Below are positions 2,424 to 63,045 of a stretch of 64,000 nt of DNA, piece after piece. This DNA is from Candidatus Aminicenantes bacterium UBA2190 (GTDB lineage: Bacteria; Acidobacteriota; Aminicenantia; UBA2199): positions 4,370-68,369 of the forward strand of contig DCVK01000061.1 in NCBI GenBank assembly GCA_002335385.1, given 5' to 3'. The position numbers were made by a program, and so were the translations under genes. The number at the start of each line of letters is the position of its first letter. Positions within the stretch are counted from its first letter, which is position 1. The notes under the pieces are model-generated. The model did no database searches, was not told the origin of the DNA, and saw only the letters and a list, made by a program, of their open reading frames with translations.

Positions 2424-3417
2424 GGACCCTGTCCGTGCTGATGTTCCGCATGCAGGCGATTGTACCATACTTGCAGCGCCTTTGGGAACACGGGCGGCAG
2501 CCCATCTCCAGCTCGACGATCTCCAGCGCCTCGCGCCGCCAGGGTCCGCTGACGGCGGGGCTGTTGGGTCCGTACAATGCCACCAGTGGGGTCGCGGTCA
2601 GGGAAGCCAGGTGCAGGGGGCCCGAATCGGCGCCCACATAGACCGCCGCATCTGCGATCAGCGCCAGCAGTTCGCGCACGGGCAGGGGGCCTGACAGATC
2701 GTGCACGCCAGGCAAACGGCTCAGGCGCGCGGCCCGCTGTTGTTCCTCGGAACTGCCGCCGATCAGGACGACCGTCGCCCGGTCCGCGGCCAGGCGCTGG
2801 GCCAGGTCAGTGAAATGCTCCTCGCCCCAATCGCGGAAGCGGTTCCCCGCCCCCAGGTGGAGCACCACCTTGGGGCGCACGCCGATGAGCGGGGCCAGGC
2901 GGGAAGAGACGGGGAAGGCGCGCGCGGCGATCGGCGGATACGGCGGCGGGTCGGCGGCGGCGACGCCCACGGCTTCCAGCAGCCGCGTTTGGCTGCGCAC
3001 GGAATGGACCGGCGGCCCGGGGAGGGAGCGGTCGACCAGGAGATTGTACGCCCAATTGCGGTTCGGCGTGCGATAGCCGACCCGGCGCCGGGCGCCGCTG
3101 GCCAGCGTCAGCAGCGCCGATCCCGGGCCTGAATGAAAATCGACGACGGTGCGCACGCCCAGCTCACGGACCCGGCGGCGGAAGGTCAGGACATCCCGCC
3201 AGCGGCGGCGGCGGGGGACGGTGAGGACGTTGTCCACACCCGGGATCAGGGCGGCGACCTCGCCGAAGCGATCCTCCACGACGTAATGCAGGCGCGAGGC
3301 GGGGAAGCGTTGCTTGAACAGGGCGACCGCGGGGATGGTGAATACGATATCGCCGAGGAGGCGCAGGCGGATGAAGAGCACGTCGCTTTCGCAAGAATCG
3401 TCCAGGTTCCCGGTCAA
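2398..3417 (-). CDS. Glycosyltransferase family 9 (ADP-heptose:LPS heptosyltransferase)
   Basis: 339-aa ORF with IRLRLLGDIVFTIPAV and GADSGPLHLA motifs. The TTG start is uncertain. It overlaps the downstream gene, which suggests an operon with the ligase-like gene and the heptose kinase. Confidence 0.8.
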   Translation of the reverse strand: MTGNLDDSCESDVLFIRLRLLGDIVFTIPAVALFKQRFPASRLHYVVEDRFGEVAALIPGVDNVLTVPRRRRWRDVLTFRRRVRELGVRTVVDFHSGPGSALLTLASGARRRVGYRTPNRNWAYNLLVDRSLPGPPVHSVRSQTRLLEAVGVAAADPPPYPPIAARAFPVSSRLAPLIGVRPKVVLHLGAGNRFRDWGEEHFTDLAQRLAADRATVVLIGGSSEEQQRAARLSRLPGVHDLSGPLPVRELLALIADAAVYVGADSGPLHLASLTATPLVALYGPNSPAVSGPWRREALEIVELEMGCRPCSQRRCKYGTIACMRNISTDRVHEAVSKFI

Positions 3418-3756
3418 GTCCAGCCTCCAGCGTGTTGAATCACCGGTCCCGACAGGAGCGCGTGCAACGATGATACAGGGCGAGGCCGGAGGTTATGATT
3501 TTCTCACTTCCATGCGGGCTTTGTCAACTCTCCGGCGAATCGGGGATTGGCGTGGTTGAAATTCGCGGACCGTTATCCCATGAACGTCTTAAGAATTTCC
3601 ATTTGATATAGCCATTTCCTAAGTATAGAAAGTATGCAATCCAACGAAAACCACATCCCATCATGTTCTATGGCGCTTGCCGGAGGGATTTCCACAGTCA
3701 TTGGCAAAATTGCGGAGCGCAACGCCGCCGCGGATGGATCAACGATGACCGGCAGG

Positions 3757-5798: not shown

Positions 5799-6443
5799 TC
5801 AGCCGCCCGGGCCGCGATTCTCGATGTAGGAACGGATATGGTCGCGCACGGACTGGTGCGTGCTTTCGTCGCGAAACAGCTTTTGCAGCCGGGCCAGCCC
5901 CAGGTGGGGAATGATTTTCAGCAGGATGCGGACCGGAGCCTCCGGGTCATGGGCGACGGCCTCGGCCACGGCCGGGCTCTGGAACCAGGAAGTTTCGGCA
6001 AGGGCCTGGTAGAAGCGGCTGCGGTCGAGGCTGCGGTTGACGAAGCGCAGCACGACCTCCTCGCTGCAGCTGGGATTCTGCAGGATGGTCTGGATAAGCT
6101 GGGGTTGGTCCTCGTCACTGAGGGCCAGGAGCAGGGAGTTCGAGGCCATCTTCAGCAGGGATGTTTTTTCTCCCAGGGCCAGCCGCTTGTAGCGCTGCAG
6201 GAATTCCAGCTCGGCCTTCTTGCGGACGAAGGGATTGGCCTTGACGTTCTTGATGACTCGTACCAGGTCGGCGGCGAACAGCTTGCTGAGGATGCCCAGC
6301 GCCAGGCCCTGGGGGAAGCGGGGATGCTGCGCCAGGCCCAGCTGCACGCGGTAATCGTCCTTGTGCCGGCGGTGGATGTCCTCCAGTTCCTCCTGGCTGA
6401 CGGCGGATGACTGCAGCCTTTTGATGACGTCCAGGCTGACCAA
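5799..6443 (-). CDS. Hypothetical alpha-helical repeat protein
   Basis: 214-aa ORF on the same strand and tightly spaced (7 nt) after the UbiA-family gene. Its composition is helical-repeat-like and I recognise no family motif. Confidence 0.55.
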   Translation of the reverse strand: MVSLDVIKRLQSSAVSQEELEDIHRRHKDDYRVQLGLAQHPRFPQGLALGILSKLFAADLVRVIKNVKANPFVRKKAELEFLQRYKRLALGEKTSLLKMASNSLLLALSDEDQPQLIQTILQNPSCSEEVVLRFVNRSLDRSRFYQALAETSWFQSPAVAEAVAHDPEAPVRILLKIIPHLGLARLQKLFRDESTHQSVRDHIRSYIENRGPGG

Positions 6444-7374: not shown

Positions 7375-7501
7375 GTAAAGTCAAAATTGAAAAGTGAATT
7401 GAGAAACTCAAGGGGAAGAAATGTATAGGTGGAATTTATATTATTTTTCTTTGATCTTGCCATTGCGCTTTACATTTCACTTTTCACTATTCACTTTTCA
7501 C
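7375..7501. repeat. Heptad-periodic palindromic intergenic element (locus A)
   Basis: The left arm is GTAAAGT CAAAATT GAAAAGT GAATTGA. The right arm is TTTCAC TTTTCAC TATTCAC TTTTCAC. The arms are roughly complementary (about 14 of 17). The right arm overlaps the pgi stop codon. Confidence 0.7.
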
Positions 7502-9125
7502 TAGGATTCTTGTCTCTGCAATATTCGATCAACGCCCGGGTCGAACCGTCCTCATCGTCGGCGGGCAACTCGCCCTTGATCTTGGGCAACAGGCGGCCGG
7601 CGATCTTCTTCCCCAGCTCCACGCCCCACTGATCGAAGGAAAAGACATTCCAGAGCACTCCCTGGGCGAACACCTTGTGCTCGTAGAGGGCGATCAGCTT
7701 GCCCAGGGTGGCGGGGGTGAGTTCCTCGGCGAGGATGGTGTTGCTCGGGCGGTTTCCGGCGAATTCGCGGAACGGCTGGAGCGCTGCAGGGACTTTCTCG
7801 CGGGCCAGTTCCTCCCGGGTCCTGCCGAAGGCCAGCGCCTGCGCCTGGGCGAACATGTTGGCCAGCAACTGTTCGTGATGATCGCGGAACGGTTCCAGCG
7901 AACGGCGGTAGCCGATGAAATCGCAGGGGACCGCCTGGGTGCCCTGGTGCAGCAGCTGGAAAAACGCGTGCTGGCCCCCTGTGCCCGGTTCTCCCCAGAG
8001 CACCGGCGCGGTCGCGTAGTCCACCTCCCTGCCGCCGCGGTCGACGCCCTTGCCGTTGGACTCCATCTCCAGCTGCTGCAGGAAGGCCGGAAAGAGTCGG
8101 AGGTACTGGCTGTACGGCAGGACGGCATGAGTGGCGGCCCCCATGAAATCGGCGTGCCAGACGCCCAGCAGCGCCAGCAGCAGCGGCAGGTTCTCTCGCG
8201 GCGGCGCGCTGCGGAAATGGCGGTCCATGGCCGCACAGCCGCTCAGCATGTCGATGAAGCGCTCGGGACCGACAGCCATCATCAGCGGCAGGCCGACCGC
8301 CGAGGAAAGCGAAAAGCGCCCGCCCACCCAATCCCAGAATTCGAAGACATTCTCGGCGGCAACGCCCCATGCCAGCGCCGCCTGCGGATGGGCGGTCACG
8401 GCAGCGACGTGGCGGACCAGGGCGGCCCGGTCCTGAAAATGTTCGAGCAGCCAGTCGCGGGCAGCGCCGGCGTTGGCCATGGTTTCCTGGGTGGTGAAGG
8501 TCTTGGAAGCGATGATGAACAGCGTCGTCTCCGGGGAGAGGAAGCGCAGCGTCTCGGACAAGTGGCTGGGATCAAGGTTGGACACGAAATGGACCTGCAG
8601 GTCGCGCTGGGAGTAGAAGCGCAGGGCGGCGCAGGCCATGCGCGGGCCCAGGTCGGAGCCGCCGATGCCGATGTGAACGACATGGCGCAGGGGGCGGCCG
8701 CCATGGCCGATCCAGTTCCCCGAGCGGATGCGTCCGGCGGCGGCGGCCATCTGCTCCCTCACCTCGCGGATGCGCGGCATGACGTCGGCGCCGTCGACCC
8801 GCTGCGGGCGACCGGAAGAATCGCGCAGCGCCCAGTGCAGGGCCGGCCGGCCCTCGGTCTCGTTGACCGCCTCGCCGGCGAACAGTCGCCGGACTTCCTG
8901 CTCCAGGCCGCAGGCTGCGGCCAGGGCGAACAGCAGGTCCAGGGTCTCGTCGTTGACCGGGTTTTTCGCAAAGTCGAGATAAATGCCCTCGGCCTGGAGC
9001 GCGTAGCGCCGGCCGCGCCCGGGGTCGGCGGCGAAAAGGTCGCGCAGGTGCAGCTTCTTCATCCCCACCGCATGCTTTCTCAAGGCCAGCCACTCGGGCA
9101 TCGTCGACCTGCATCGCCGGTTCAT
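7491..9125 (-). CDS. pgi: Glucose-6-phosphate isomerase
   Basis: 544-aa ORF with clear PGI similarity throughout (HLRDLF..D..R, IGIGGSDLGP, WGEPGTGGQHAFFQLLHQGT). A GGGAGAAG RBS lies upstream of ATG 9125. Confidence 0.95.
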   Translation of the reverse strand: MNRRCRSTMPEWLALRKHAVGMKKLHLRDLFAADPGRGRRYALQAEGIYLDFAKNPVNDETLDLLFALAAACGLEQEVRRLFAGEAVNETEGRPALHWALRDSSGRPQRVDGADVMPRIREVREQMAAAAGRIRSGNWIGHGGRPLRHVVHIGIGGSDLGPRMACAALRFYSQRDLQVHFVSNLDPSHLSETLRFLSPETTLFIIASKTFTTQETMANAGAARDWLLEHFQDRAALVRHVAAVTAHPQAALAWGVAAENVFEFWDWVGGRFSLSSAVGLPLMMAVGPERFIDMLSGCAAMDRHFRSAPPRENLPLLLALLGVWHADFMGAATHAVLPYSQYLRLFPAFLQQLEMESNGKGVDRGGREVDYATAPVLWGEPGTGGQHAFFQLLHQGTQAVPCDFIGYRRSLEPFRDHHEQLLANMFAQAQALAFGRTREELAREKVPAALQPFREFAGNRPSNTILAEELTPATLGKLIALYEHKVFAQGVLWNVFSFDQWGVELGKKIAGRLLPKIKGELPADDEDGSTRALIEYCRDKNPSEK

Positions 9126-9339: not shown

Positions 9340-10524
9340 ATGGCGCGCGAACTGCTTTTCCAGACCGAAAGCGGGGCATCGGGAGACATGATCCTGGCCG
9401 CCCTCATCGACCTGCTCGACGCCGGCGCCGAATTCAAGACGACGTTCGAGGCCATCGGCCTTGACGTCACGATCTCGATCGCCGACACGGAGAAGAGCCA
9501 TCTGCGCTGCAAGCAGGTCACGATCGAGGCGCCGCCGGCGGCCCACGCCGTCACCTGGACCGAGATCGAGGCGTTCATCGCCGAAGTCCCCCTTTCGGCA
9601 AAGGTCCGCCACGACGCCGGGCTCATCTTCAAGACCATCTTCGCGGCCGAGGCCGCCGTCCATGGGCAGGAGCTGAAGAACGTCCACCTGCACGAGGTCG
9701 GCGCCGACGATTCGCTGGTCGACATCCTGGGATTCTGCTGGCTGTGGGAGAAGCTGGAGCGCTGCCCGATCATTTTCACCACCCTGGTCACCGGCTTCGG
9801 CAGCGTGCGCACCCGTCACGGCCTGCTGCCGGTGCCGCCGCCGGCGGTGCTGCACATGGTCCAGGGCCTCGCCTGTCGCGCCGGCGACATCGAGGACGAA
9901 CGGCTGACCCCGACCGCGGCAGCGATCCTGACCACGTTCGGACGCCAGGCCCCCTCGCGCGGCAGCGCCCGCCCCTTGCGGGCCGGCTACGGCTGCGGCC
10001 ACAAGTCGTTCGCCGCGGCGCCCAACCTGCTGCGGGCCATTCTGGAAGAAAAGGAGGATGCCCGGTCCGACGCCGGCGTCTGGGTGCTGGAGAGCTTTCT
10101 CGACGACATCAGCCCCGAGCTGCTCGCCCATGCCTCCGAGCGCATCGTCCAGGCCGGGGCCCTGGACATCTTTATCGCCCCGGGCCAGATGAAGAAGGGG
10201 CGGCCGGGTTTCCAGCTGACCGTCCTGTGCCCCGATGAGGCGCATGAGATGGTCAGCGCCGCCATCTTCGCCGAAAGCACGGCCATCGGCCTGCGTCAGC
10301 GCTTCTCCGACCGCGTGGTCCTGACGCGCGAGACGCGCTCGCTGCGGGTGGCCGGACGCGAGGTGCGGCTGAAATCCGCGTTGTTCCAGGGCCGCGCCAT
10401 GAACGTCAAACCCGAGTTCGACGATGTCCGCCGCCTCGCCGCCGAGCTGGGCATTCCGGCCAAGGAGGCCATGCGCCTGGTATGGGGAGTCATTCATGAA
10501 GAAAATGGACCTGGAAAAGATTAA
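9340..10524 (+). CDS. larC: LarC family nickel insertion protein (DUF111)
   Basis: 394-aa ORF with an N-terminus of ESGASGDMILAALIDL and HLHEVGADDSLVDI motifs characteristic of LarC. Confidence 0.85.
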   Translation: MARELLFQTESGASGDMILAALIDLLDAGAEFKTTFEAIGLDVTISIADTEKSHLRCKQVTIEAPPAAHAVTWTEIEAFIAEVPLSAKVRHDAGLIFKTIFAAEAAVHGQELKNVHLHEVGADDSLVDILGFCWLWEKLERCPIIFTTLVTGFGSVRTRHGLLPVPPPAVLHMVQGLACRAGDIEDERLTPTAAAILTTFGRQAPSRGSARPLRAGYGCGHKSFAAAPNLLRAILEEKEDARSDAGVWVLESFLDDISPELLAHASERIVQAGALDIFIAPGQMKKGRPGFQLTVLCPDEAHEMVSAAIFAESTAIGLRQRFSDRVVLTRETRSLRVAGREVRLKSALFQGRAMNVKPEFDDVRRLAAELGIPAKEAMRLVWGVIHEENGPGKD

Positions 10525-11074
10525 GCGCGGCGTCACGTTGATCCTGGAGGGCATCGGCGAGGACTCCGCCTCGGAGCGGCTGCAGGAGACGCCGCGCCGG
10601 GCGGCGGCCATGTTCGCCGAAGTCCTGTCGGGCACGGGCCAGGAGCCGGCCGACTTCCTTAAGTGCCTGACCGAGGAAAAGCACGATGAGATGGTCATCC
10701 TCAAGGACATCCCCATCTATTCCATGTGCGAGCACCACCTGCTTCCCTTCTCGGGCAAGGCCAGCATCGCCTATATCCCCAAGAAAGGGCGCATCATCGG
10801 GCTGAACAACCTGGGCTACCTGGTCGATTACCTGGCCCGGCGCCTGCAGCTGCAGGAGCGCCTGACCAAGCAGATCGCCGACTATCTGGTGCAGGCCCTC
10901 GACCCCATGGGGGTGATGGTGGTGATCAAGGCCGAGCACCTGTGCATGACCATGCGCGGAGTGAAGAAGCCGGGATCGCTGACCATCACCTCGGCCGTGC
11001 GCGGGGTGTTCCGCGAAAACCTCGGCCCGCGCCAGGAGGCCATGTCGCTGCTGATGAACCCGGAGAGCCGCTGA
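10496..11074 (+). CDS. folE: GTP cyclohydrolase I (type 1)
   Basis: ETPRRAAAMF, SMCEHHLLPF and HLCMTMRGV motifs are present. The start is taken as MKKMDLEK at 10496, which overlaps the larC 3' end by 29 nt. Confidence 0.92.
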   Translation: MKKMDLEKIKRGVTLILEGIGEDSASERLQETPRRAAAMFAEVLSGTGQEPADFLKCLTEEKHDEMVILKDIPIYSMCEHHLLPFSGKASIAYIPKKGRIIGLNNLGYLVDYLARRLQLQERLTKQIADYLVQALDPMGVMVVIKAEHLCMTMRGVKKPGSLTITSAVRGVFRENLGPRQEAMSLLMNPESR

Positions 11075-11103
11075 GCCGGCATTCAATAAAAGGAGGAGGC
11101 AAC

Positions 11104-11667
11104 ATGACCGAAGTCAAAGGCGTGGTCATCGCATCGACCCCCAAGATGATCCTGGACAAATTCGGCCAGTACGGGTTGAAGAAGTGGCTGGAGCTGATCT
11201 CGCCCGCCGCCCGCAGGGTCTATTCGTCCGAAGTCAACCCCGAGGCCTGGTTCCCGCTGAAGGAGATGCTGATCGAGCCCATGGCCAACATCGCCCAGCT
11301 CTTCTACGACTGGGACCTGAAGAAGGCCGCCTGGGACTTCGGCCGCATGAGCGCCGACAACCGCTTCCATGGCCTGCTCAAGCTGCTGGTCAAGATCCCC
11401 AAGACCAACACCCTGGTGGAAAAGGCCGGCGAGTACCTGGGTTCCTATTACCGCCCCTGCACCATCACCGTGCCCATCAGCGACACGAACTACTGCCTGC
11501 TGCGCATCAGCCACTTCCCGGAGATGGACAAGACCACTGAGTTCCGCATCTGCGGCTGGATCGAGCGCTCCCTGGAGATCTCCGGCGGCAAGAACGTGAA
11601 AGTGGAGATCATCAAGTCGCTGACGAATCTTCAGCCCATCTCGGAGTACGAGCTGCGCTGGGGCTAG
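11104..11667 (+). CDS. Hypothetical protein (187 aa)
   Basis: An AGGAGGAGG RBS lies 5 nt before ATG 11104. The codon usage looks coding and I recognise no motif. The long N-terminal extension in the track (from 10726) overlaps folE in another frame and is rejected. Confidence 0.6.
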   Translation: MTEVKGVVIASTPKMILDKFGQYGLKKWLELISPAARRVYSSEVNPEAWFPLKEMLIEPMANIAQLFYDWDLKKAAWDFGRMSADNRFHGLLKLLVKIPKTNTLVEKAGEYLGSYYRPCTITVPISDTNYCLLRISHFPEMDKTTEFRICGWIERSLEISGGKNVKVEIIKSLTNLQPISEYELRWG

Positions 11668-11680
11668 GGCTTGCAGCAAT

Positions 11681-11945
11681 CGGTTTGCGGTTGACGGTGC
11701 ACGGTGTAGGGCAAGAAAAGAAAGCAATAATAAGAATTAACCGCCAAATCCCAAATTCCAATGACCCAATCCCCTAGCGGGGACTTTGACCCAAACGAAG
11801 AGAATGCCCATTTCAAGGGGCTTTCGTTTGGGAAATTGGAATTTGGAGCTTGGAATTTATTTGGAATTTGGTGCTTGAGATTTGGAATTCAAGTCTTACG
11901 ATTGCCTCTTCTCTTCCCGTCAACCGTCAACCGTTTACCGTATGC
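11681..11945. repeat. Nested heptad-periodic palindromic element (locus C)
   Basis: The outer arms are CGGTnnn x4 (11681-11708) and CCGTnnn x4 (11917-11944). The inner arms are CCAAnnn x4 (11744-11771) and a TTGGnnn array (11830-11890). The centre is a perfect 10-bp stem, 11790-11799 with 11823-11832. Confidence 0.8.
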
Positions 11946-11962
11946 CGAGTTCGCAGCGGCGC

Positions 11963-13651
11963 CTAGAAGCAGCGCAGGGCAAACGGCATGGCCATGGCCG
12001 GGAAGAAGTGCTGGTAGGCCTGCAGCCGCGCCCTGGCGTCCAGCGGGTTCTGCGCCTTGACATCGGTCATCGCGAAGATCATCTCGAAGAACGATTTCTT
12101 CTGCGGGTAAACGCGCACGCCGAACCTCTCGCTGGCCGGGATGCGGGCCAGCTTTCTGGCCTCCTCCAAGGCGTCGCTCAATCCCCCCAGGCCGTCAATT
12201 AGTCGCAGCGTCAGCGCCGCGCGCCCGCTCCATACGCGGCCGCGCGCGATCCGGTCCACATCCTTGGCCTCCATCTTGCGGTTGCGCGCCACCTTGCTCA
12301 GGAAATCGTCGTAAATGCGCTGCATGTCGCCGAGGACCTTCTCTTTTTCCCGCTCGTTGAAGGGCCGGTAATCGGAGTACATGCCGGCGAATTCCGAGGT
12401 CGAGAGGATCTCCTTGCTGATCCCGATCTTGTCGTACAGCCCCTTGAGCACGAACTTGCCGGAGATGACGCCGATCGAGGCGGTGATGGTCTCGGGGTGG
12501 GCGAAGATCTTGTGGGCCGAGAGCGATATCCAGTACCCACCGGAAGCGGCCAAGTCGGACATGGAAATGACCAGGGGTTTCTTCTGGGACAGCAGCTCGG
12601 CTTCGCGCAGGATGACGTCGGAGGCGACGGCCGAGCCGCCGGGGCTGTCGACCCGCAGCACCACCGCCTTGACCGACGAATTGTTCCGGACCTGGCGCAG
12701 CTGCTCGGCCAGGGTATCGGCGCCCAGGACGTCGCCGCCGAACAGCGAGTCGCCGCCGCTGCGCCCCATATTGATCTCGCCGGAGGCGAAGATGACGGCG
12801 ATCTTCTTGGAACCGCTGAACGGCAGCGGCGAGCGGGTCTTGGCGTAGGTGCGGAATTTCACTTCGGGATAGGTGGCCGGCATCAGCTTGAACAGGTCGT
12901 CCTCGTAGCCCAGGGAATCGACCAGCTTGGCCTTGACGTATTCCTCCTGGGGCTGCGGCGAGCGGTCGAGGAGTTCCTTGACCTTCGCCGCGTCCAGCTT
13001 GCGGTTGACGGCGATGCCCTCGATGACCGCCTGATAGAGGTCATCGATGAGCGCCTGGGTGGATTCGCGGTGAGCCGGGGTCATGCGCTCCTCGGTGAAC
13101 GTATTGCTCGCGGTCTTGTAGTCGCCGATATGATAGACATCGGCCTGCACCCCCAGCTTGGAGAGGGTATTCTTCAGGAAGAGGGCCTCGGCGCCGATGC
13201 CGCTGATCGAGAGGGCGCCGCCCTTGAACATGACGACCTTGTCGGCGAAGGAGGCAAGGTAATATTCTTTCAAGCCGCCGTCGATGATGAATGCCGCCAC
13301 CGGCTTCTTGCTGGCGGCGAATCTCTCGAGCAGGCGTCCGATCTCCTCGATCTTGGCGAAGCCGGCGTCCAGGTACTGGATGCGCAACAGTACGCCGCGA
13401 ATGCGCTCGTCGCGCGCGGCCCGCTCCAGGTGGAACCACAGATCGTGGATGGAAATCCCGGAACCGGTCATGGCCGGGAAACGCGAATGCGTGGTCTCGC
13501 TGATGGTGCCCCCCAGGTCGATCTTCAGGTAGGCCTTCTGGGGAACAAAGGGCTCCTGGGTGAACTGCAGGTAGATGAACCCGCCCACGATGAAAAGACC
13601 CAGCAGGATGACAATGATCACCAACAGGGCGATCAGCGCGCCTCGTTTCAT
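11963..13651 (-). CDS. sppA: Signal peptide peptidase SppA, 67K type
   Basis: Two S49 peptidase repeats (DSPGGSAVASD, ASGGYWIS) and an N-terminal TM segment. The start is taken as MKRGALI (13651), which is preceded by AAGGAG. Confidence 0.88.
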   Translation of the reverse strand: MKRGALIALLVIIVILLGLFIVGGFIYLQFTQEPFVPQKAYLKIDLGGTISETTHSRFPAMTGSGISIHDLWFHLERAARDERIRGVLLRIQYLDAGFAKIEEIGRLLERFAASKKPVAAFIIDGGLKEYYLASFADKVVMFKGGALSISGIGAEALFLKNTLSKLGVQADVYHIGDYKTASNTFTEERMTPAHRESTQALIDDLYQAVIEGIAVNRKLDAAKVKELLDRSPQPQEEYVKAKLVDSLGYEDDLFKLMPATYPEVKFRTYAKTRSPLPFSGSKKIAVIFASGEINMGRSGGDSLFGGDVLGADTLAEQLRQVRNNSSVKAVVLRVDSPGGSAVASDVILREAELLSQKKPLVISMSDLAASGGYWISLSAHKIFAHPETITASIGVISGKFVLKGLYDKIGISKEILSTSEFAGMYSDYRPFNEREKEKVLGDMQRIYDDFLSKVARNRKMEAKDVDRIARGRVWSGRAALTLRLIDGLGGLSDALEEARKLARIPASERFGVRVYPQKKSFFEMIFAMTDVKAQNPLDARARLQAYQHFFPAMAMPFALRCF

Positions 13652-13738
13652 ATTGAATCTCCTTGGCTCCATGCGATTGGACAGGCTATTATACTGAATT
13701 TCGCCCTGAAAAGTTTAATTTCCCTTGCTTCTCGCGGG

Positions 13739-16082: not shown

Positions 16083-16228
16083 GAAAATGGCGCCCGGTGG
16101 ACGGCGGGAAAGAAGCCCCGCACGGGAGTCAAGCCCCCGATTCCCAATCAGTTCCAGCCTGTGAATTCCGCTGTCCCCACCTTGGCGATTCCCCGAAATT
16201 CTCATGGTAATCGTCAATCGCCCTGCTG

Positions 16229-16331
16229 TTTGGACATTGGGTCATTGGTGCTTGGAGCCTGCCGGGAATTTGCAGCTTGGAGCCTGGCGCTGTTCTTTCT
16301 GGCCGGCCGCCGTCAACCGCTGACCGTTTCC
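16229..16331. repeat. Heptad-periodic element, right-half type (locus D)
   Basis: TTGGnnn-type units are followed by CCGTCAA CCGCTGA CCGTTTC and abut the mglA stop. It shares an exact 13-mer (in reverse complement) and a 10-mer with locus C. Confidence 0.65.
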
Positions 16332-19998: not shown

Positions 19999-20015
19999 GC
20001 TCTCTCTCTCAACAA

Positions 20016-20114
20016 GGGCCCAGGAGGTCCCGGTCACCTGCGGGATCCTGCTGATTGCTGCTACCTCTCGGTCCTGACAAGGTTCGCAGGCCCGCACCGC
20101 CGGGCTCCTGGGCC
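20016..20114 (-). ncRNA. ffs: Small (4.5S-type) signal recognition particle RNA
   Basis: The minus strand reads GGCCCAGGAG...CCUUGUCAGGACCGAGAGGUAGCAGCAAUCAGCAGG...CUCCUGGGCC. It has the domain IV motif GUCAGG..GNRA..AGCAGC and a 10-bp terminal helix. It sits immediately upstream of dnaX, which is a conserved synteny. Confidence 0.8.
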
Positions 20115-20164: not shown

Positions 20165-20251
<87 letters not shown>

Positions 20252-27928: not shown

Positions 27929-28004
27929 TGGCTCCTCAGGAGGGACTTGAACCCCCAACCTAATGGTTAACAGCCATCCGCTCTGCCGATTGAGCTACTG
28001 AGGA
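27929..28004 (-). tRNA. tRNA-Asn (anticodon GTT)
   Basis: The hand-folded cloverleaf has an acceptor stem TCCTCAG/CTGAGGA, an anticodon loop CTGTTAA and a T-arm GGGGG-TTCAAGT-CCCTC. CCA is encoded. Confidence 0.9.
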
Positions 28005-28264
28005 ACCCGATTGGAATTATAGCATCCCGCTGAAAAAGTGTCAATTGATTTTTTGAGCCCTTGACCCGCCACGGGGGCGGACCGGGAAATCCGCCGGGGC
28101 CGCCCTGCCGACCGCGCGGCGGCAGGACCGGGAAAAAATTATCGCAAGGGGGAATGCTTTTTCCCGGATTTTCTGGAATAATCATCTTTTCGGGAATGCG
28201 AAGCGAGTCCATTGCGCGGAAAAAATCGCCAAAAGGTGCAGCCAACATTAGACTTGCCGATTAC

Positions 28265-28711
28265 ATGGACAGAAAACTGATCTTTTTGGACCTGCAGGCG
28301 GATTCAAAAGAAGAAGCCATCCGGGAGATCGTCGGGCGCATGAAGGAAAACCATGCGATCCGGGATGAAGAATCGGTGCTGGAAGAGATTTTCAGCCGCG
28401 AGTCCCGCGGCGGCACCTCGCCGGGAAACGGCGTCGCCGTTCCCCACGCCCGGGTGAAGACGATCGACCGCATCATCATGGCCATGGCCAGGCTGTCCAC
28501 CGGCGTAAGCTTCTCCGCGGAGGATCGTCAGCCGGTGCGGATCGTGTTCATCCTGATCACCCCGCTGGAAAAACTGAACGAGTACTGGAAGGTCCTGGCC
28601 GGCCTGGCGAAATTCCTGAAGGACCGCAAGCTGCTCAAGCAGCTTCTCGCGGTCGATTCCGTCGAAGCCGCCTGGGAGTTGTTCGACACGCTCGCTCCGC
28701 GGGACCAGTAA
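28265..28711 (+). CDS. ptsN: PTS EIIA type-2 domain protein (EIIA-Ntr / PtsN-like)
   Basis: 148-aa ORF with the phosphorylatable His region GNGVAVPHARV and a LIFLDLQADSKEEAIREI N-terminus typical of PtsN. Confidence 0.8.
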   Translation: MDRKLIFLDLQADSKEEAIREIVGRMKENHAIRDEESVLEEIFSRESRGGTSPGNGVAVPHARVKTIDRIIMAMARLSTGVSFSAEDRQPVRIVFILITPLEKLNEYWKVLAGLAKFLKDRKLLKQLLAVDSVEAAWELFDTLAPRDQ

Positions 28712-28755
28712 GAGAAGCCGGGCCGCCGCATTCCGTCGCCCGCCCCGCCCCGCCT

Positions 28756-28784
28756 TTGGCAAATCGCCCGGAATCGCATATAAT
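28756..28784 (+). promoter_or_regulatory. Duplicated leaderless-type promoter TTGGCA-17-TATAAT, 6 nt upstream of ATG 28791
   Basis: It has the same geometry as the promoter at 35755-35783. It now faces the truncated gene fragment and the NtrC-like regulator. Confidence 0.45.
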
Positions 28785-28790
28785 ATCGCC

Positions 28791-28937
28791 ATGCCGGCCG
28801 AGAGCAAGAAACTTTTCCTGAAACCGCATGAAGAGAAGCGCATCCTCGACGGCGAATTCTGGGCCTACGGCGAAGAAATCCGCATTCAACGGAGGAAAGG
28901 GGCATCCACCATAAATTTGCCGGTTGTCCCTGAGTGA
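28791..28937 (+). pseudogene. Truncated duplicate of the 5' end of the rRNA methyltransferase gene at 35790
   Basis: MPAESKKLFLKPHEEKRILDGEFWAYGEEIR matches MPTEYMKLFLKPHEEKRILDGEFWAYDNEIR at 25 of 31 aa. At nucleotide level 80 of 93 nt are identical, with a 37-nt perfect core. Similarity then ends and a stop follows at 28935-28937. Confidence 0.8.
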
Positions 28938-30295
28938 ACATGGGTGACACGGAGAGATTTTTCCGCTTGAATGTCCTGATCGTGGACGATGAAGCCAATA
29001 TCCGCAAGACGCTCTCATACTGCCTGGAAGCCGATGGAAACAGGGTCATCGCCGTGAGCAATCCGGCGGACGCCGTAAAGGAGGCCCGCAGGCGTTCCTT
29101 CGATCTGGCGTTCGTCGATCTCAAGCTGGGTGAAGAGAACGGCATGGATTTGATCCCGATATTGCTCATGGATTCTCCCTGGATCAAGATCGTTGTCATC
29201 ACCGCGCATGCCTCCATCGAGAGCGCCGTCGAGGCCATCCAGCGCGGCGCCACCGACTATATCGCCAAACCCTTCACTCCGGATCAGGTCAAGCTCATCA
29301 CCCGGAGGATCGGCAGGATCAGAGAGCTGGAAACCGAGATCGCGGTACTCAAGGAGAACATGCAGCGGCTGGGTCCGGAGGATCGGCTTCAGAGTCTGAG
29401 TGCCGGCATGCAAAGAGTCATTGAAACCGCGAAAAAGGCCGCAGCCTCGGAGGCGATCGTCTTGCTTTGCGGTGAAAGCGGCACGGGAAAATCAGTGTTT
29501 GCCAGGGCGATCCACCACTGGAGTCCGCGAGCGGCAAAACCCATGGGCGTTGTGGCTTGTCCAGCGGTTCCTCCCGATCTTCTTGAGAGTGAGTTGTTCG
29601 GGCATGCCAAAGGGGCATTTACCGGCGCAATTCGGGATAATCCGGGACGCATCGCCGCATGTGAAGGCGGTACGCTTTTCCTGGATGAGATCGGCGATAT
29701 GGCTCCTGCCGTGCAGGCCAAATTGCTGCGGTTCATCCAGGACAAGGAATATGAGCGCCTGGGGGAATCGCAGGTACGCAAGGCGGATGTCCGCATCATC
29801 GCCGCCACGAATGCCGACCTCAAAAAGCGCGTAGCCGAGGGTCGATTCCGGGAAGACCTGTTCTATCGGCTGAACGTAATTTGCCTGACGATTCCCCCGC
29901 TTCGTGATCGACCGGATGACATTGTGCCACTGGCCAGGGATTTTCTCAGGCATCTCTGCCAGGCCAACCATAAGGCGATTCTTGGGTTTACCTCCGGAGC
30001 CGAGAAATTCTTGTTAAGCCAGGCTTGGCCGGGAAATGTTCGGGAACTCCGCAACACCATCGAGCGGGTGGTCATCCTGGGCGGCGGCGAATGGATCGAT
30101 TTGTCCGATTTTCCCGAAAAAACGGTTTCCAGCTCCGGCACTCCAGCCCTTGGCGACAAGGTGCCGTTGGCCACCATCGAAGAATTGCACATCAAAAGAG
30201 TCATTGCCAATACCGCCTCACTCCAGGAAGCTGCGGATGTTCTGGGTATCGACCAGGCAACGCTCTGGCGCAGGAGAAGGATTTACGGAATTTGA
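28934..30295 (+). CDS. Sigma-54-dependent response regulator (NtrC family)
   Basis: A receiver domain (LIVDDE...DLAFVDLKL), an AAA+ domain with GESGTGKS and the GAFTGA loop (KGAFTGA), and a C-terminal Fis-type HTH. The start is GTG 28934 or ATG 28940, overlapping the stop of the gene fragment. Confidence 0.92.
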   Translation: MNMGDTERFFRLNVLIVDDEANIRKTLSYCLEADGNRVIAVSNPADAVKEARRRSFDLAFVDLKLGEENGMDLIPILLMDSPWIKIVVITAHASIESAVEAIQRGATDYIAKPFTPDQVKLITRRIGRIRELETEIAVLKENMQRLGPEDRLQSLSAGMQRVIETAKKAAASEAIVLLCGESGTGKSVFARAIHHWSPRAAKPMGVVACPAVPPDLLESELFGHAKGAFTGAIRDNPGRIAACEGGTLFLDEIGDMAPAVQAKLLRFIQDKEYERLGESQVRKADVRIIAATNADLKKRVAEGRFREDLFYRLNVICLTIPPLRDRPDDIVPLARDFLRHLCQANHKAILGFTSGAEKFLLSQAWPGNVRELRNTIERVVILGGGEWIDLSDFPEKTVSSSGTPALGDKVPLATIEELHIKRVIANTASLQEAADVLGIDQATLWRRRRIYGI

Positions 30296-30319
30296 TTCCG
30301 CGTTTTCTTGCCATCCACC

Positions 30320-30359
30320 TTGCAATTCGCAAGACATTTCTTTGTCAGATATTGCAATT
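30320..30359 (+). promoter_or_regulatory. Candidate enhancer (UAS): two TTGCAATT sites 32 bp apart
   Basis: TTGCAATT occurs at 30320-30327 and 30352-30359, and each contains the palindromic hexamer TTGCAA. The sites lie 60-100 nt upstream of the sigma-54 promoter. Confidence 0.3.
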
Positions 30360-30417
30360 TTCAAAGCCCGTCATCCTGGCTGCAAGAATAAGCCAGGGAA
30401 AACGTGGTCCTGATATA

Positions 30418-30432
30418 TGGCACGCCTTTTGC
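30418..30432 (+). promoter_or_regulatory. Sigma-54 (-24/-12) promoter
   Basis: TGGCACgccttTTGC matches the consensus TGGCAC-N5-TTGC exactly. It lies 45 nt upstream of the kinase gene start and directly downstream of the NtrC-type activator gene. Confidence 0.7.
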
Positions 30433-30476
30433 CTGTACTAAGGTGACAACGGTTGCCATTTGGAGGAATGCATCCA

Positions 30477-32309
30477 ATGACGTTAAAGAAAAAGATTCTC
30501 ATCGGGTATGGCGTCGCGTTCGCCCTCATGGTGCTCGTGGTGGCTTGGGCGATAACGAACCTGGTGTCGCTGGGCAGGGCGACCGACGCCATCCTCAGCG
30601 ATAACTACCGCAGCATCCTCGCCGCCGAGAACATGGTGGATGCCTTGGAGCGGCAGGACAGCGGGACGCTGCTCCTGTTCCTGGGCGAAAACGAAAAGGG
30701 GATCGCGCAGTTTCGGGAAAACGAAGCCGTCTTCCTGGAATGGCTGGCCAGGGCGAAAGACAACATCACGATTCAGGGAGAGGCGGGACTTGTCCAATCC
30801 ATCGAGACGAATTACTCGGCTTATCGAAAGCAATTCTCCGCGCTGACCGACTTCAGTGAAACGAACAAAGCGGCCTTGGTGCCCACCCATTATCAGGACA
30901 AAGTCTACCCCCCCTTCATCCAGGTTCGTGAGGCGTGTGTCGGCCTGCGCAACCTCAACGAGGAGACCATGTACGCCGCCAGCCTCGGGGCCGGCGCCGT
31001 GGCCAGGCGCGCGATCTGGTCAACGGCTCTCGTGGCCGCGTCGGCACTGATCGTGGCCTTGATGTTCAGCTTGTTTCTCGCCGAGCGGATTGCCCAACCG
31101 ATCCGCCGCTTCATGGAGGCGTCGCGGAGAATCTCCTCGGGCGACTATTCCGTCCAGGTGCCCGTTAAAACCGACGACGAGCTTGGGCATCTGGCCAGAG
31201 AGTTCAATCAGATGTCCCTTCAGCTTGGCCGCTACCACGAAATGAACTTCGACCAAATCATTGCTGAAAAGAACAAGGGCGAGGCGATTCTCTCGAGCAT
31301 CGAGGATGGCTTGGTGGTTTTCGACATCCAGCTCAAGGTGGCCGGCATCAATCCCGCCGCCCGCCGGATGCTGAAGCTGGAATTCACTGAAAGCTCCTCG
31401 TTACGCTGCATGGACATTCTGCCGGATCAGCAGGTCTGCGATCTGATCCACAAGACAGTCGAGACGGGAGCACAGCCGAACATCCCGGACGAACAACGGA
31501 TTATCGTTCTCCCGGATAATGAAGGTTCCAGGCATTACTTTTTTTCGGTTACGGCGATTCGCGGAAGGGACCAAAAACTGTCCGGCATTGTGCTCCTGCT
31601 CAGGGACGTGACTCGCCTGAAGGAAGTGGAGCGACTCAAGAGTGAGTTCATTATGGCCGCGTCTCATGAGCTGCGCACGCCACTGACCAGCCTGAGCATG
31701 AGCGTGGACCTGCTCATGGAACATGCAACCGGCAATCTGGCTGAAAGGGATCGGGATCTCCTGCAAGCAGCTCACGAGGAAGTCCACCGCATGAAGGAGC
31801 TCGTGAATGACTTGCTTGACCTCTCAAAAATCGAGGCGGGCCGGATCGAACTTGAGTTCGAAAATGTTCCGGTTGCAACCTTGTTCGGGCACGTCGAAGC
31901 GGTTTTCAAAAGCCAGACAGACATGAAACAGGTTTCGCTTGAATCGGCGCTCACCCATGATTCGCTCAAGGTCCGCGCCGATACCAACAAGATCACATGG
32001 GTATTGTCCAATCTGATTTCCAATGCCCTGCGCTATGTGAGCAGGGGTGGCCAGATAAGTCTGAAGGCTCTTCAGATCGGACATCACGTCCATCTCTCCG
32101 TGCGTGATAACGGGCCGGGAATTCCTCTCGAGTATCAATCCAAGTTATTTCAGAAATTCGTCCAGGTGAGAGGGCAGGAATCAAGTGGAACAGGGCTGGG
32201 ACTGTCCATTTGCAAGGAGATCGTGCGCGCTCATGGCGGCACGATCTGGGTGGAATCATCCGCAGGTCAGGGAAGCACATTCACCTTTTCCCTGCCGGTG
32301 GCCCAATAG
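30477..32309 (+). CDS. Sensor histidine kinase (TM-sensor, HAMP, PAS, HisKA, HATPase_c)
   Basis: H-box SHELRTPLTSL, N-box SNLISNALRY and G-boxes RDNGPGIP and GTGLGLSICKEIV, with two TM segments flanking an approximately 170-aa periplasmic region. The start MTLKKK (30477) lies 9 nt after GGAGGA. Confidence 0.9.
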   Translation: MTLKKKILIGYGVAFALMVLVVAWAITNLVSLGRATDAILSDNYRSILAAENMVDALERQDSGTLLLFLGENEKGIAQFRENEAVFLEWLARAKDNITIQGEAGLVQSIETNYSAYRKQFSALTDFSETNKAALVPTHYQDKVYPPFIQVREACVGLRNLNEETMYAASLGAGAVARRAIWSTALVAASALIVALMFSLFLAERIAQPIRRFMEASRRISSGDYSVQVPVKTDDELGHLAREFNQMSLQLGRYHEMNFDQIIAEKNKGEAILSSIEDGLVVFDIQLKVAGINPAARRMLKLEFTESSSLRCMDILPDQQVCDLIHKTVETGAQPNIPDEQRIIVLPDNEGSRHYFFSVTAIRGRDQKLSGIVLLLRDVTRLKEVERLKSEFIMAASHELRTPLTSLSMSVDLLMEHATGNLAERDRDLLQAAHEEVHRMKELVNDLLDLSKIEAGRIELEFENVPVATLFGHVEAVFKSQTDMKQVSLESALTHDSLKVRADTNKITWVLSNLISNALRYVSRGGQISLKALQIGHHVHLSVRDNGPGIPLEYQSKLFQKFVQVRGQESSGTGLGLSICKEIVRAHGGTIWVESSAGQGSTFTFSLPVAQ

Positions 32310-32318
32310 GAGGAACAC

Positions 32319-33044
32319 ATGGAAAAGGATTCCATCCTGGTCGTTGACGATGAGAAGAACATCCGTCTGACCATGTCGCAGTCATTGGAACCACTGGAGA
32401 TTCCAGTCCAGACTGCCGTGAATGGCGAGGAGGCACTTCAGAAACTTCGCAAGACTTCATACAGTCTGGTTTTCCTGGATTTAAAAATGCCTGGAATAGA
32501 CGGGATGGAGGTCCTTCGGCAAATCAAGGACAGCTGGCCCAAAGTCCGGGTAATCATCATCACTGCCCACGGGACGATTGAATCCGCCGTGGAGGCCATG
32601 AAATACGGCGCGGTAGATTTCATTCAGAAGCCTTTCAGTCCCGTTGAGATTCGGGAGTTGGCCACTCGGGTGCTGCGGCGCGAGGCGCTGCTGGAGAAGG
32701 ACGCGTTCGATTATTTCTCCTTGATCGAACTCACCAAAAAATACATCTCAGATCGCGGATTCTCGGCTGCCCGGGAAACCGTTCGGAAGGCCATGGCGGC
32801 GGACCCGACCCAGCCGGAGGCGTACAACCTTCTCGGGGCATTGCATGAAATCAAGGGTAATAGGTTGGAGGCCCAAAAATTCTACCGGGCGTCCTTGGAT
32901 ATCGACTCCTCATTCAAACCGGCCCGAGCGAACCTGGATCGTATCACGTCCTGGGAAAAAAAAGGCAGGATCGATCTCGGTCCCGACAGGAAAACCGCCG
33001 ATTTGCCGGACGAAGGCATCAAGGATGGCGCGGATGAAGAATAA
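32319..33044 (+). CDS. Response regulator receiver domain fused to a TPR-like C-terminal region
   Basis: A CheY-like domain (LVVDDE...LVFLDLKMPG...KPF) is followed by AYNLLGALHEIKGNRLEAQKFYRASLDID, which is TPR-like. An AGGAGG RBS is present. Confidence 0.85.
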   Translation: MEKDSILVVDDEKNIRLTMSQSLEPLEIPVQTAVNGEEALQKLRKTSYSLVFLDLKMPGIDGMEVLRQIKDSWPKVRVIIITAHGTIESAVEAMKYGAVDFIQKPFSPVEIRELATRVLRREALLEKDAFDYFSLIELTKKYISDRGFSAARETVRKAMAADPTQPEAYNLLGALHEIKGNRLEAQKFYRASLDIDSSFKPARANLDRITSWEKKGRIDLGPDRKTADLPDEGIKDGADEE

Positions 33045-33474
33045 CCGCTACATCGTGATCGTGGGCTGCGGCAGGCTGGGATCGCATCTGGCCAACCATC
33101 TCAGTCGTAGCGGCAATTCGGTGGTGGTGATTGATAAGAACGAGCCCACTTTCAAAGACCTGTCGCCAGATTTCAGCGGTTTTCGAGTTCACGGGGATGC
33201 CACGCAGATGGCCGTTCTGAAAGAGGCCAAGGTCAACCAAGCGGATATTCTGATCGCCACCACCCACGAGGACAACGTCAATTTGATGGTGGCTCAAGTG
33301 GCGCAGGGTATTTTCAGGGTTCCCCATGTGCTGGCCAGGGTTTTCGATCCCAAAAGAATGGAGGTTTATGCGCAACTGGGCATCGACACCATATGCCCGA
33401 CATCTGTGGCCGCGGAGATGTTTCTTCAAGCCGTTGCCAATGGCGCGGCCGGACGCAGGGGAGCCAATCCATGA
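33034..33474 (+). CDS. TrkA-N (RCK N-terminal, NAD-binding) domain protein
   Basis: IVIVGCGRLGSHLANHL Rossmann motif in a protein of about 146 aa with no RCK_C domain. The start is 33025 or 33034, overlapping the upstream gene. Confidence 0.8.
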   Translation: MKNNRYIVIVGCGRLGSHLANHLSRSGNSVVVIDKNEPTFKDLSPDFSGFRVHGDATQMAVLKEAKVNQADILIATTHEDNVNLMVAQVAQGIFRVPHVLARVFDPKRMEVYAQLGIDTICPTSVAAEMFLQAVANGAAGRRGANP

Positions 33475-34133
33475 AAGTGCTCATCGTCGGAAGCGGCAAA
33501 ACGCTATATTTTTTATCCCGGAATTTTTCTGCGCGCGGATACCAGGTCGTCATCATCAACCGCAACCCGGAAGAATGTATCCAACTGTCCCGCCAACTGA
33601 CTGCCACGGTGGTTTGCGGCGACGGAAGCGATGACGACATTCTCAAGGATGCCGGCGCCATGGGCGCCGATGCCGTGCTCGCCATCACTCCGAACGACCA
33701 GGACAATCTGGTCATCTGTCAACTTGCCTCCCGCAAATTCAGTGTTCCCAGAACCATGGCTCTGGCCAACGATCCAGACAATGCCGAAGTTTTCGAAAAG
33801 TTGGGAGTCTCGGGCTTTTCCACAACCCACATCGTCGGCAGTCTGATCGAGCAACGGGCCTCCTTGGAACAGATTACCAACTTGTTGCCCGTAGGAGAAG
33901 GCCGGGTGAACGTGACGGAAATCGTGCTTACTGGAGACTCCCCGGTCGTAGGGAAGCTCTTGAAGGATATCGACCTGCCTGAAAACGCCTTGGTGGCCGT
34001 GGTGATCCGCGACAAAAAGCCGATCATCCCCCGCGGAGCCACTGTCATGCTGGCAGGCGACCGAGTCGTACTGATTACACTTCCGGAAAATCATGGTCCG
34101 GTGCTCAAGGCGTTCACCGGCGAACGGTTATAG
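33471..34133 (+). CDS. TrkA/KtrA-like protein (RCK_N plus RCK_C)
   Basis: 220 aa. The N-terminus VLIVGSGKTLYFL has a degenerate GxGxxG motif. The C-terminal TrkA_C-like region is VTEIVLTGDSPVVGKLLKDIDLPE...VVIRD. It overlaps the upstream gene as ATGA. Confidence 0.8.
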   Translation: MKVLIVGSGKTLYFLSRNFSARGYQVVIINRNPEECIQLSRQLTATVVCGDGSDDDILKDAGAMGADAVLAITPNDQDNLVICQLASRKFSVPRTMALANDPDNAEVFEKLGVSGFSTTHIVGSLIEQRASLEQITNLLPVGEGRVNVTEIVLTGDSPVVGKLLKDIDLPENALVAVVIRDKKPIIPRGATVMLAGDRVVLITLPENHGPVLKAFTGERL

Positions 34134-34147
34134 GGGGGGACCGGCCC

Positions 34148-35623: not shown

Positions 35624-35641
35624 ACCCCGGACGGACTGTAA

Positions 35642-35783: not shown

Positions 35784-35789
35784 ACTCCC

Positions 35790-63032: not shown

Positions 63033-63045
63033 CCGCTCGATCTAT

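Follow-up and report, generated by a model that had tools for sequence, protein, structure and literature searches.

What kind of element occupies the 295-nt spacer between two convergent genes at positions 11668–11962 of a 64,000-nt stretch of DNA from Candidatus Aminicenantes bacterium UBA2190 (contig DCVK01000061.1; the whole stretch is referred to as the window), and how could it have come to be built from 7-nt units? We found that the spacer is a long imperfect palindrome, in which one hairpin-forming repeat element is nested within another, and that the arms of both elements consist of 7-nt tandem units. On balance, we favor the interpretation that these are two nested members of dispersed non-coding palindromic families that populate the intergenic DNA of GC-rich Aminicenantes. 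Probably, though far from certainly, they are palindromic repeats comparable to repetitive extragenic palindromic (REP) sequences and bacterial interspersed mosaic elements (BIMEs), or to MITEs (miniature inverted-repeat transposable elements), with arms made of heptanucleotide simple repeats in which change occurs in whole units.

The outer element opens with a G-rich arm of four CGGTnnn units at 11681–11708 (CGGTTTG CGGTTGA CGGTGCA CGGTGTA; lag-7 identity 0.76) and closes with four CCGTnnn units at 11917–11944 (CCGTCAA CCGTCAA CCGTTTA CCGTATG; lag-7 identity 0.81), followed by the family terminus CCGAGTTC. These two arms are 76–77% complementary. Between the outer and inner arms lie a purine-rich left junction at 11709–11743 (GGGCAAGAAAAGAAAGCAATAATAAGAATTAACCG) and a pyrimidine-rich right junction at 11891–11916 (AAGTCTTACGATTGCCTCTTCTCTTC); the latter holds the inner-element terminus AGTCTTAC known from other copies and has counterparts at other loci, which are designated here by L numbers (TTTTAGTCTTACC in L122 and L127, TTTTAATCTTACC in L070). 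The left arm of the inner element, at 11744–11771, is of the CCAAnnn type (CCAAATC CCAAATT CCAATGA CCCAATC) and includes the family core CCAATGACC, and the right arm, at 11828–11890, comprises about nine TTGGnnn heptamers (TTGGAAT, TTGGAGC, TTGGTGC and others) with repeat periods of 7, 14 and 25 and contains the 17-mer TTGGAATTTGGTGCTTG. The central hairpin (11790–11832) has a perfect 10-bp stem, CCCAAACGAA/TTCGTTTGGG (11790–11799 with 11823–11832), which encloses a small GCCC...GGGC stem, is A/G-rich to the left and T/C-rich to the right, and is homologous to the centers of L122, L105 and L027.

The family core CCAATGACC/CAAACGAAG is interrupted in the window by a 17-nt palindrome, TCCCCTAGCGGGGACTT (11770–11786), bracketed by the 8-nt direct repeat TGACCCAA (11762–11769 and 11787–11794). 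The resulting insert at 11762–11794 is also present in L002 (at 7879), and the core is uninterrupted in L105, L122 and L127. This mini-palindrome may be the scar of a template switch or an inserted element that is smaller still. TCCCC-N2-4-GGGGA mini-palindromes were seen within arrays of three heptamer families (L001 at 3501, L003 at 1730, L007 at 7871 and the window); taken over all loci, 11 occurrences of TCCCC-N-GGGGA against 5 expected amount to a weak enrichment.

Across the spacer, lag-7 identity was 0.444, compared with 0.25 in shuffled sequences (z-score 7.6), with harmonics at lag 14 (z 5.3) and lag 21 (z 3.8); lags not near multiples of 7 were at background, save lag 1 (z 5.1). Folding gave a single long hairpin for the RNA of either strand, with z of about −7 in each case (plus strand, −121.2 kcal/mol, z −7.2; minus strand, −114.6 kcal/mol, z −7.4), and the DNA fold was similarly stable relative to its controls (−65.4 kcal/mol, z −6.6). 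An initial annotation of this DNA had given coordinates and sequences for the element that were all correct on rechecking, including the perfect 10-bp stem, and its 295-nt gap between convergent genes stands, with the left gene corrected to 11104–11667. Its description of the gap as almost wholly made of tandem units was overstated: period-7 arrays make up about 147 of the 295 nt, i.e. about half, and the non-periodic parts are a 56-nt center (lag-7 identity 0.18) and both purine/pyrimidine-rich junctions. The same annotation had held that the element is non-coding and neither a CRISPR array nor a canonical terminator, and our results agree. No intrinsic terminator (stem plus T-tract) was found on either strand between 11300 and 12300, a search of the whole window against Rfam at the gathering threshold returned no family at this locus, and an Rfam search of the element at E ≤ 10 gave a best match of 21.7 bits against a threshold of 48, with nothing relevant. 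CRISPR arrays, which have direct repeats of 23–50 nt that alternate with unique spacers, were rejected since the 7-nt units are contiguous, without spacers, and Rfam CRISPR-DR matches were far below threshold. Outward promoter-like sites in the arms were weak (9 of 12 matches).

The element is not peculiar to a single assembly. Eleven public contigs, obtained from independent samples, encode the exact 187-aa protein of the left flanking gene. Among them, five span the spacer, four base-identical to the window and one with a single-nucleotide polymorphism, the sole one among the six assemblies (11809 C>A, in the central hairpin). Three further contigs (L150, L153 and L154) stop inside the element, after 134, 193 and 53 nt, which fits the behavior of assemblers at dispersed repeats. 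In the metagenome-assembled genome UBA2199 (L002), the composite is 93% identical to that of the window, and the coding DNA of the adjacent sppA gene is 90% identical. The identical sequence in independent assemblies, together with the L002 copy, excludes an assembly artefact, one of the refutations that had been envisaged in the initial annotation. The only array indels between L002 and the window concern one 7-nt unit, which the right outer arm of L002 lacks, and roughly 25 nt of the left inner arm; the comparison thus shows whole-unit length change of the arms.

Further copies occur in the window itself. Three consecutive CGGTnnn units were found only at 11.7 and 16.3 kb (0.4 expected), and triple TTGGnnn and CGGTnnn arrays alike are confined to 11.7 and 16.2 kb, with 0.2–0.4 expected. 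The site at 16083–16330, again between convergent genes, is a diverged, GC-richer and colinear copy of the composite, with the order CGGTnnn – AAAGAAG – CCAAnnn ... TTGGnnn – TTCTTTCT – CCGTnnn, a local alignment score of 55 (78 for the reverse complement; null 19.8 ± 2.7) and a predicted fold of −102 kcal/mol (z −2.6). The third copy, at 38019–38108, is a decayed half that aligns with 11882–11961, i.e. from the last TTGG unit through the junction and the CCGTnnn arm into the flank (score 63, null maximum 33). Since this half-copy takes in inner terminus, junction and outer arm as one piece, and the copy at 16083–16330 is colinear, we concluded that the composite itself has been copied; counting the 11.7-kb locus, three composite copies lie within the 64 kb.

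The two component families also occur separately. The termini of the CGGTnnn family, GAACTCGG/CCGAGTTC, are kept at the sppA spacer (window, L002 and L015) and are found at an unrelated divergent-promoter spacer (L007, L016 and L008) and on the metagenome contig L070. The window and a non-orthologous site of L012 have in common a 43-nt stretch with 95% identity. For the TTGGnnn/CCAAnnn family, a metagenome scan with the 17-mer TTGGAATTTGGTGCTTG as a query returned at least 120 stretches, with contig GC content of 31–66% among the matches listed; judged by these matches, the family is also present in many other uncultured bacteria. Among the 102 listed matches with enough flank, a phased CCAA array lies upstream in 56 and downstream in one, so the polarity of the TTGG element is fixed in this set. 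Many listed copies have the common core CCAATGACC(A/C)AAAC ... GTTT(T/G)GGTCATTGG, and in GC-rich Aminicenantes-like contigs the element has the termini GGTAAGAnTAAA ... TTTAnTCTTACC. Metagenome contigs of 10–14 kb carry two or three TTGG copies each; in L077, two copies are about 88% identical over 140 nt and have abrupt borders.

Nesting, too, takes several forms. Outer-only versions are found at orthologous or paralogous sites (L015, L007 and L016), the TTGG element is surrounded in GC-rich Aminicenantes-like contigs by CCGTnnn (L030 and L070), CTCGTCA (L122) or GCGTCAC (L128) arms, and in L088 the nesting is reversed, with a GCGTGAC-type element in the loop of a TTGG-type element. L012 and L008 form a filled/empty pair at a divergent-promoter spacer that is orthologous in the two: the element is present in L012 and missing from L008. 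The nesting variants, the sharp borders of the multi-copy inner family and the filled/empty pair support the insertion of one element into another, and with it the insertion or templated spread that had been suggested from the element-within-element layout.

We also compared the spacer downstream of sppA at 17 syntenic loci, whose SppA proteins are 78–89% identical in amino-acid sequence to that of the window and place the window in Candidatus Aminicenantes. L002 carries the element of the window; the arms are GCGTGAC/GCGTAAC in L001, L007, L011, L016 and L010, GTTCGAN in L003 and L012, AAAAGGT in L004, and CGGYnnA without an inner element in L015. In seven lower-GC relatives (52–59%), the spacer is 20–40 nt long and free of arrays, and several of them have a small hairpin and a T-run. 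Three different heptamer families occur in the clade that is closest in the SppA tree (window, L001, L002 and L003), and the GTTCGAN and CGGYnnA families each recur on distant branches, so that the family distribution departs from the gene tree. Arm replacement thus outpaces the divergence of the genes, and the incoming arms belong to families that are also present at other loci.

The window and the 17 syntenic loci (264 kb of Aminicenantes DNA) were surveyed for period-7 arrays; the analysis as a whole also covered about 0.8 Mb of metagenome flanks. The 264 kb contain 43 lag-7 arrays, compared with about 0.4 in local shuffles, whereas lags 4, 5 and 8–13 gave 0–4, which confirms the intergenic excess of period 7 anticipated in the initial annotation. 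Nearly all surveyed arrays are intergenic, in convergent, tandem and divergent contexts; some precede an extended −10 box or lie between tandem genes, and some abut or overlap −35 regions. Where two arrays are adjacent, the G-rich one precedes the C-rich one in 13 pairs and follows it in two. In the Aminicenantes set, a purine run (GAAGAAA-like) comes after 17 of 26 G-rich arrays and a pyrimidine run before 14 of 23 C-rich arrays. It is on these counts that the polarity of the junctions rests, because a scan of the window with the junction motif ATTGCCTTCTCTTC gave only two matches, a number equalled in 13 of 100 shuffles. The survey showed a shared element plan, namely a dyad of array, purine-rich junction, loop, pyrimidine-rich junction and complementary array.

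Six of the roughly twenty spacers in the window carry arrays (at 7.4, 11.7, 16.2, 56.1, 61.9 and 63.1 kb). At 7377–7503, a heptamer palindrome, AAAGTGA ... TTTCACT, lies upstream of an extended −10 promoter and is orthologous to arrays at 10898–11029 of L007. The GTGAAAA ... TTTCACT palindrome at 56071–56172 (−48.6 kcal/mol, z −6.2) has junction motifs of the composite type: as had been noticed in the initial annotation, the motifs GCAAGAAAAGAAAGC and ATTGCCTCTTCTCTTCC of the 11.7-kb composite have relatives, GCAAAGAAAAGAC and ATTGCCTTCTCTTCAC, that flank the core of the element at 56070–56173. Promoters placed back to back enclose this dyad: the minus strand carries TTGACT-17-TATATT and the plus strand TTGCCC-17-TATAAT. 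A one-sided array of about 15 GACRTCT/AACGTCT heptamers occupies 61892–61996, and a single spacer at 63045–63167 holds the short arrays TCGTGAT (2.4 units) and CTCGTCA (3 units) together with a hexamer array, CTGACA (4 units, 63142–63167). Because this hexamer array co-occurs with heptamer arrays, the period is not always 7; the 264-kb set contains 20 lag-6 arrays, coding and non-coding pooled. In the spacers of L016 (3251–3409) and L011 (3307–3426), the arms are non-complementary to the opposite array. There, CCCTAAA/CCCTATA arrays, the complement of the plant-type telomere unit TTTAGGG, adjoin CCTGTAC arrays (L016 at 3328–3359, L011 at 3395–3426), and both kinds of array are preceded by TCTTATTCTTCT-like pyrimidine runs.

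Under the interpretation that we favor, an inner TTGG-type element would have entered the loop of a pre-existing CGGTnnn-type hairpin, and the composite would then have been copied to at least two other sites of the same genome. Arm length may change by replication slippage, and a rough complementarity of the arms may be kept by intrastrand template switching or by recombination between copies. New copies would favor the loops of existing hairpins, and spread could proceed by transposition in trans, as for REP sequences with their RAYT transposases or for MITEs, or by gene conversion. For the host, the elements are probably selfish or near-neutral DNA. At this site, a transcript from one or the other of the convergent genes would form a long hairpin, which may impede read-through or 3′ exonucleases in the manner of REP/BIME sequences.

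Several observations weigh against this scheme. Within arrays, mismatches cluster in one to three heptamer phases and the other four to six positions are invariant (z 5.0), so that units can be written as constant plus variable positions (CGGT+nnn, TTGG+nnn, GTTCGA+n and GCGT+r+AC), and one alphabet of TTGG units (TTGGAAT, TTGGTGC, TTGGGAT, TTGGAGC and TTGGTCA) recurs in contigs of very different GC content. The phase-limited mismatches and the recurring alphabet point to constraint or recognition rather than free drift. Unit number does not vary among strain-level copies, and slippage is therefore not fast. All ten relatives with GC content of at least 0.60, and L012 (0.55), keep some hairpin at the sppA spacer despite the change of family, and this retention in GC-rich relatives could reflect selection for a function. 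Target-site duplications, sought by eye at L077, at the L012/L008 pair and at the borders in the window, gave no convincing case, the only direct repeat of this kind being the 8-nt one around the 17-nt palindrome, and a Pfam check of nine window proteins revealed no transposase. The AtpD protein of a low-GC carrier contig from the metagenome scan has best named matches only about 60% identical, from scattered phyla, too remote and mixed to indicate the taxonomy of the carrier.

As to a vehicle, a BLAST search of the element against plasmids and phages gave no match. Nor do the IMG/VR matches amount to evidence for a viral vehicle: of nine matching contigs only about four have real arrays. One IMG/VR contig classed as viral, L145 (GC content 0.65), carries TTGG arrays at 2059–2075 and 5949–5965 as well as CGTGCGT, CGTAATC, CATCACT and CTTGGCG arrays; it might represent prophage DNA in a host rich in repeats, or else a means of spread. 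On the low-GC contigs L021 (3407), L025 (10125), L033 (4020) and L040 (3910), TTGG hairpins stop just short of an ATG start codon, within a few nucleotides of it, and no Shine-Dalgarno sequence is visible, an arrangement reminiscent of the TAACTGA repeats ahead of start codons in Beggiatoaceae.

A different explanation, which we consider unlikely, is that the spacer is a selected RNA element, a bidirectional transcription stop and 3′-end protector for the convergent genes, in which the heptamer arms provide an evolvable long stem. It draws on the lower-GC relatives L008, L009 and L014, where the 20–40-nt spacer holds a small GC hairpin and a T-run, and on the eleven relatives, including all those with GC content of at least 0.60, that have a hairpin element instead of such a short spacer. 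The A/G-rich left and T/C-rich right sides of the center resemble those of bidirectional terminators, and the TTGG family is found more often between convergent than between divergent genes (27 and 11 cases, respectively, among the matches listed). However, no stem plus T-tract was found on either strand (11300–12300), a like architecture stands between back-to-back promoters where nothing transcribes into it (the 56-kb dyad, L007, L008 and L016), and the arms can be non-complementary, as in L016 and L011. Moreover, for the 25 listed TTGG-family copies located between co-directional genes according to the crude gene calls of the metagenome loci, the sense strand folds better in 13 and the antisense strand in 12. 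With near-equal folding of the strands and no sense-strand advantage, we found no evidence of selection at the RNA level.

Quite unlikely, in our estimation, is the explanation that the arrays are protein-bound heptads, acting as operators, insulators or nucleoid sites. The omega repressor/centromere protein of pSM19035, a ribbon-helix-helix protein, binds as one dimer per 7 bp with the consensus WATCACW, and its operators resemble our arrays in being contiguous 7-bp units, direct or inverted, beside promoters. The strict 7-bp period with an invariant 4–6-nt core and one to three variable positions would suit such a reader, as would the arrays that abut or overlap −35 regions. In L005 (12000–12034) and L017 (12037–12071), arrays AATCACT AATCACT ACTCACT AATTACT AATTACT end about 10–15 nt upstream of the TATAAT of the downstream gene and fit the omega consensus. 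The heptads of the composite are CGGTnnn and TTGGnnn, not WATCACW. A regulatory partner has also been proposed for Nostoc heptamer repeats (bioRxiv 10.1101/2022.06.06.494920). Against protein binding stand the more than ten unrelated heptads in one genome, which would call for numerous proteins or for a reader of very relaxed specificity, as well as the presence of arrays in spacers bounded by convergent stop codons. The analysis yielded no candidate protein, and dispersal with shared termini and nesting is left unexplained by this proposal.

We regard as similarly doubtful the broader idea that the 7-nt period is the signature of dedicated machinery shared across phyla, either a heptad-reading mobilizing protein or an enzyme that adds templated 7-nt units. 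If it were true, such machinery would build and spread nested palindromes with fixed polarity and a conserved alphabet (TTGG+3 and CGGT+3), and the elements would represent a new class of mobile or structural DNA.

Purely local growth, in which a chance heptamer is extended by slippage and mirrored by template switching without any movement between loci, appears very unlikely. Whole-unit indels are what it predicts, slippage has been put forward in print for the excess of heptamers, as summarized in PMC4679880, and in relatives the flank GATCGGTCAGCC beside the stop codon of the 187-aa gene includes one CGGTCAG unit, a possible seed of the CGGTnnn arm. Yet the order of variant units, the non-repeat termini and the junctions recur at non-orthologous loci and in different genomes, and the family distribution departs from the gene tree; the nesting variants and the filled/empty pair likewise disfavor it. 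Hardly credible is a small regulatory RNA gene, e.g. a CsrA-type sponge acting through the multiple GGA motifs of the TTGGAAT arm (11828–11890), since other heptamer families have no GGA, the GGA arm would pair with the CCAA arm, and neither an Rfam match nor a convincing promoter or terminator was found, and the same verdict covers an assembly artefact, already excluded above. The CsrA-sponge and G-quadruplex readings were both rejected, as most heptamer families lack GGA motifs or G-runs.

The left flanking gene (11104–11667, plus strand) encodes a protein of 187 aa without a Pfam family, is preceded by the ribosome-binding site AAAGGAGG and stops 14 nt before the outer arm. The listed open reading frame of 313 aa (10726–11667) is over-extended, because the GC content at third codon positions rises from 0.39 upstream of 11074 to 0.90 downstream of it, and the shorter gene is also the one in public gene calls; the starts of the listed 313-aa and 569-aa frames are both wrong. 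According to public gene calls, the preceding gene (10424–11074) encodes GTP cyclohydrolase I. On the right, the convergent gene at 11963–13672 (minus strand) encodes the signal-peptide peptidase SppA (Peptidase_S49). Elsewhere in the window, a signal recognition particle RNA (20015–20113) and tRNA genes (20165–20251 and 27932–28004) lie on the minus strand. A block of lower GC content at 28000–36000 (54–58%, compared with about 64%) adjoins the latter tRNA gene and encodes a phosphotransferase-system EIIA-like protein, a sigma-54 response regulator, a histidine kinase, a second response regulator, two TrkA proteins and TrkH. We rejected the possibility that this block is a transposase-bearing island, as it holds ordinary two-component and Trk genes and no mobility genes were seen in it.

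In many bacteria, no other long simple repeats are as over-represented as heptamers, for which there is no accepted function or origin. Here, in an uncultured phylum, the locus and the related sites reveal heptamers arranged as polar dyads whose junctions are alike, nested by insertion and belonging to families that cross genome boundaries. A vague slippage story thereby becomes testable: one can ask which factor copies the elements, why four to six positions per unit stay constant, and whether transcription units are insulated. In practical terms, the elements break metagenome assemblies, as the three public contigs that end in this one illustrate, and they are useful as strain and lineage markers.

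Among known systems, MITEs such as Correia and Nezha share with our elements the inverted ends, the non-coding and multi-copy nature with sharp borders, and the insertion of one element into another. Shared termini and sharp borders of this type are present here (L077; GAACTCGG/CCGAGTTC; GGTAAGAnTAAA/TTTAnTCTTACC). No convincing target-site duplication was seen at the borders inspected, nor a parent insertion sequence in the DNA covered, and, unlike in MITEs, the "inverted ends" are arrays of variable length. Nested small dispersed repeats were reportedly described in cyanobacteria by Elhai in 2008. REP, BIME and REPIN sequences (Bertels & Rainey 2011, PMC3116915; Delihas 2011, PMC3184786) are likewise short, non-coding extragenic palindromes, often inverted doublets, and are multi-copy, as ours probably are; they occur in 3′ regions and within operons, and they too are probably selfish, with secondary effects on the stability of mRNA or on termination. 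REPs, however, are fixed sequences of 20–40 nt rather than tandem heptamers, and REPINs are tied to the RAYT transposase.

In the repeat units themselves there is a resemblance to heptanucleotide long simple sequence repeats (LSSRs), the most abundant class in many bacteria, for which polymerase slippage was proposed (Mrazek 2007, as reported in PMC4679880), and to the cyanobacterial short tandemly repeated repetitive (STRR) sequences, of which PMC4692102, in its summary of earlier work, mentions three different heptamers in one genome and several in Calothrix and Nostoc. A regulatory partner or role has been proposed for the Nostoc repeats in the preprint cited above. The initial annotation had stated that no repeat class with a constant period and variable sequence was known; this was wrong, because such heptamer classes, including the STRR sequences and the Xanthomonas array pairs, have been published (PMC4679880, PMC4692102). 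Like the LSSR/STRR class, the composite has four arrays of 4–9 head-to-tail units, an intergenic excess in the 264-kb set and whole-unit length change. In the accounts that these two papers give of earlier studies (Mazel 1990; Mrazek 2007), STRR sequences share with our arrays the 7-nt tandem units, the intergenic location, several heptamers per genome, length variation between relatives, the lack of an assigned function and slippage as the proposed origin. They differ in host, being described from cyanobacteria rather than from Aminicenantes (Acidobacteriota), and the arrays analyzed here are mostly dyads of fixed polarity, with common purine/pyrimidine junctions, nesting and dispersed families with conserved non-repeat termini.

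Xanthomonas genomes carry 70–75 convergent, stem-loop-capable pairs of GGGAATC arrays each (Rehm et al. 2015, PMC4692102). These arrays, too, are G-rich intergenic heptamers in convergent, hairpin-capable pairs that favor convergent-gene spacers over divergent ones, and their pair type is conserved while length varies between species, in likeness to the arrays described here. The Xanthomonas arrays form one heptamer family, interpreted in terms of G-quadruplex formation, whereas our set includes many families, most of them without G-runs of three or more, and shows nesting and a conserved hairpin core, CCAATGACC..GGTCATTGG. TAACTGA repeats, common to Beggiatoaceae, cyanobacteria and Bacteroidetes (MacGregor 2015, PMC4679880), offer a precedent for one heptamer family spread across distant bacteria, in intergenic DNA and often just before start codons; in contrast to our elements, they are nearly always direct (one indirect array in 170) and are neither palindromic nor nested. 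Set against the literature searched, three features appear to be new: numerous heptamer families in a single genome that form polar dyads and have their junctions in common, the nesting of heptamer dyads in either order, and a TTGG+3 family with a conserved hairpin core in organisms of very different GC content.

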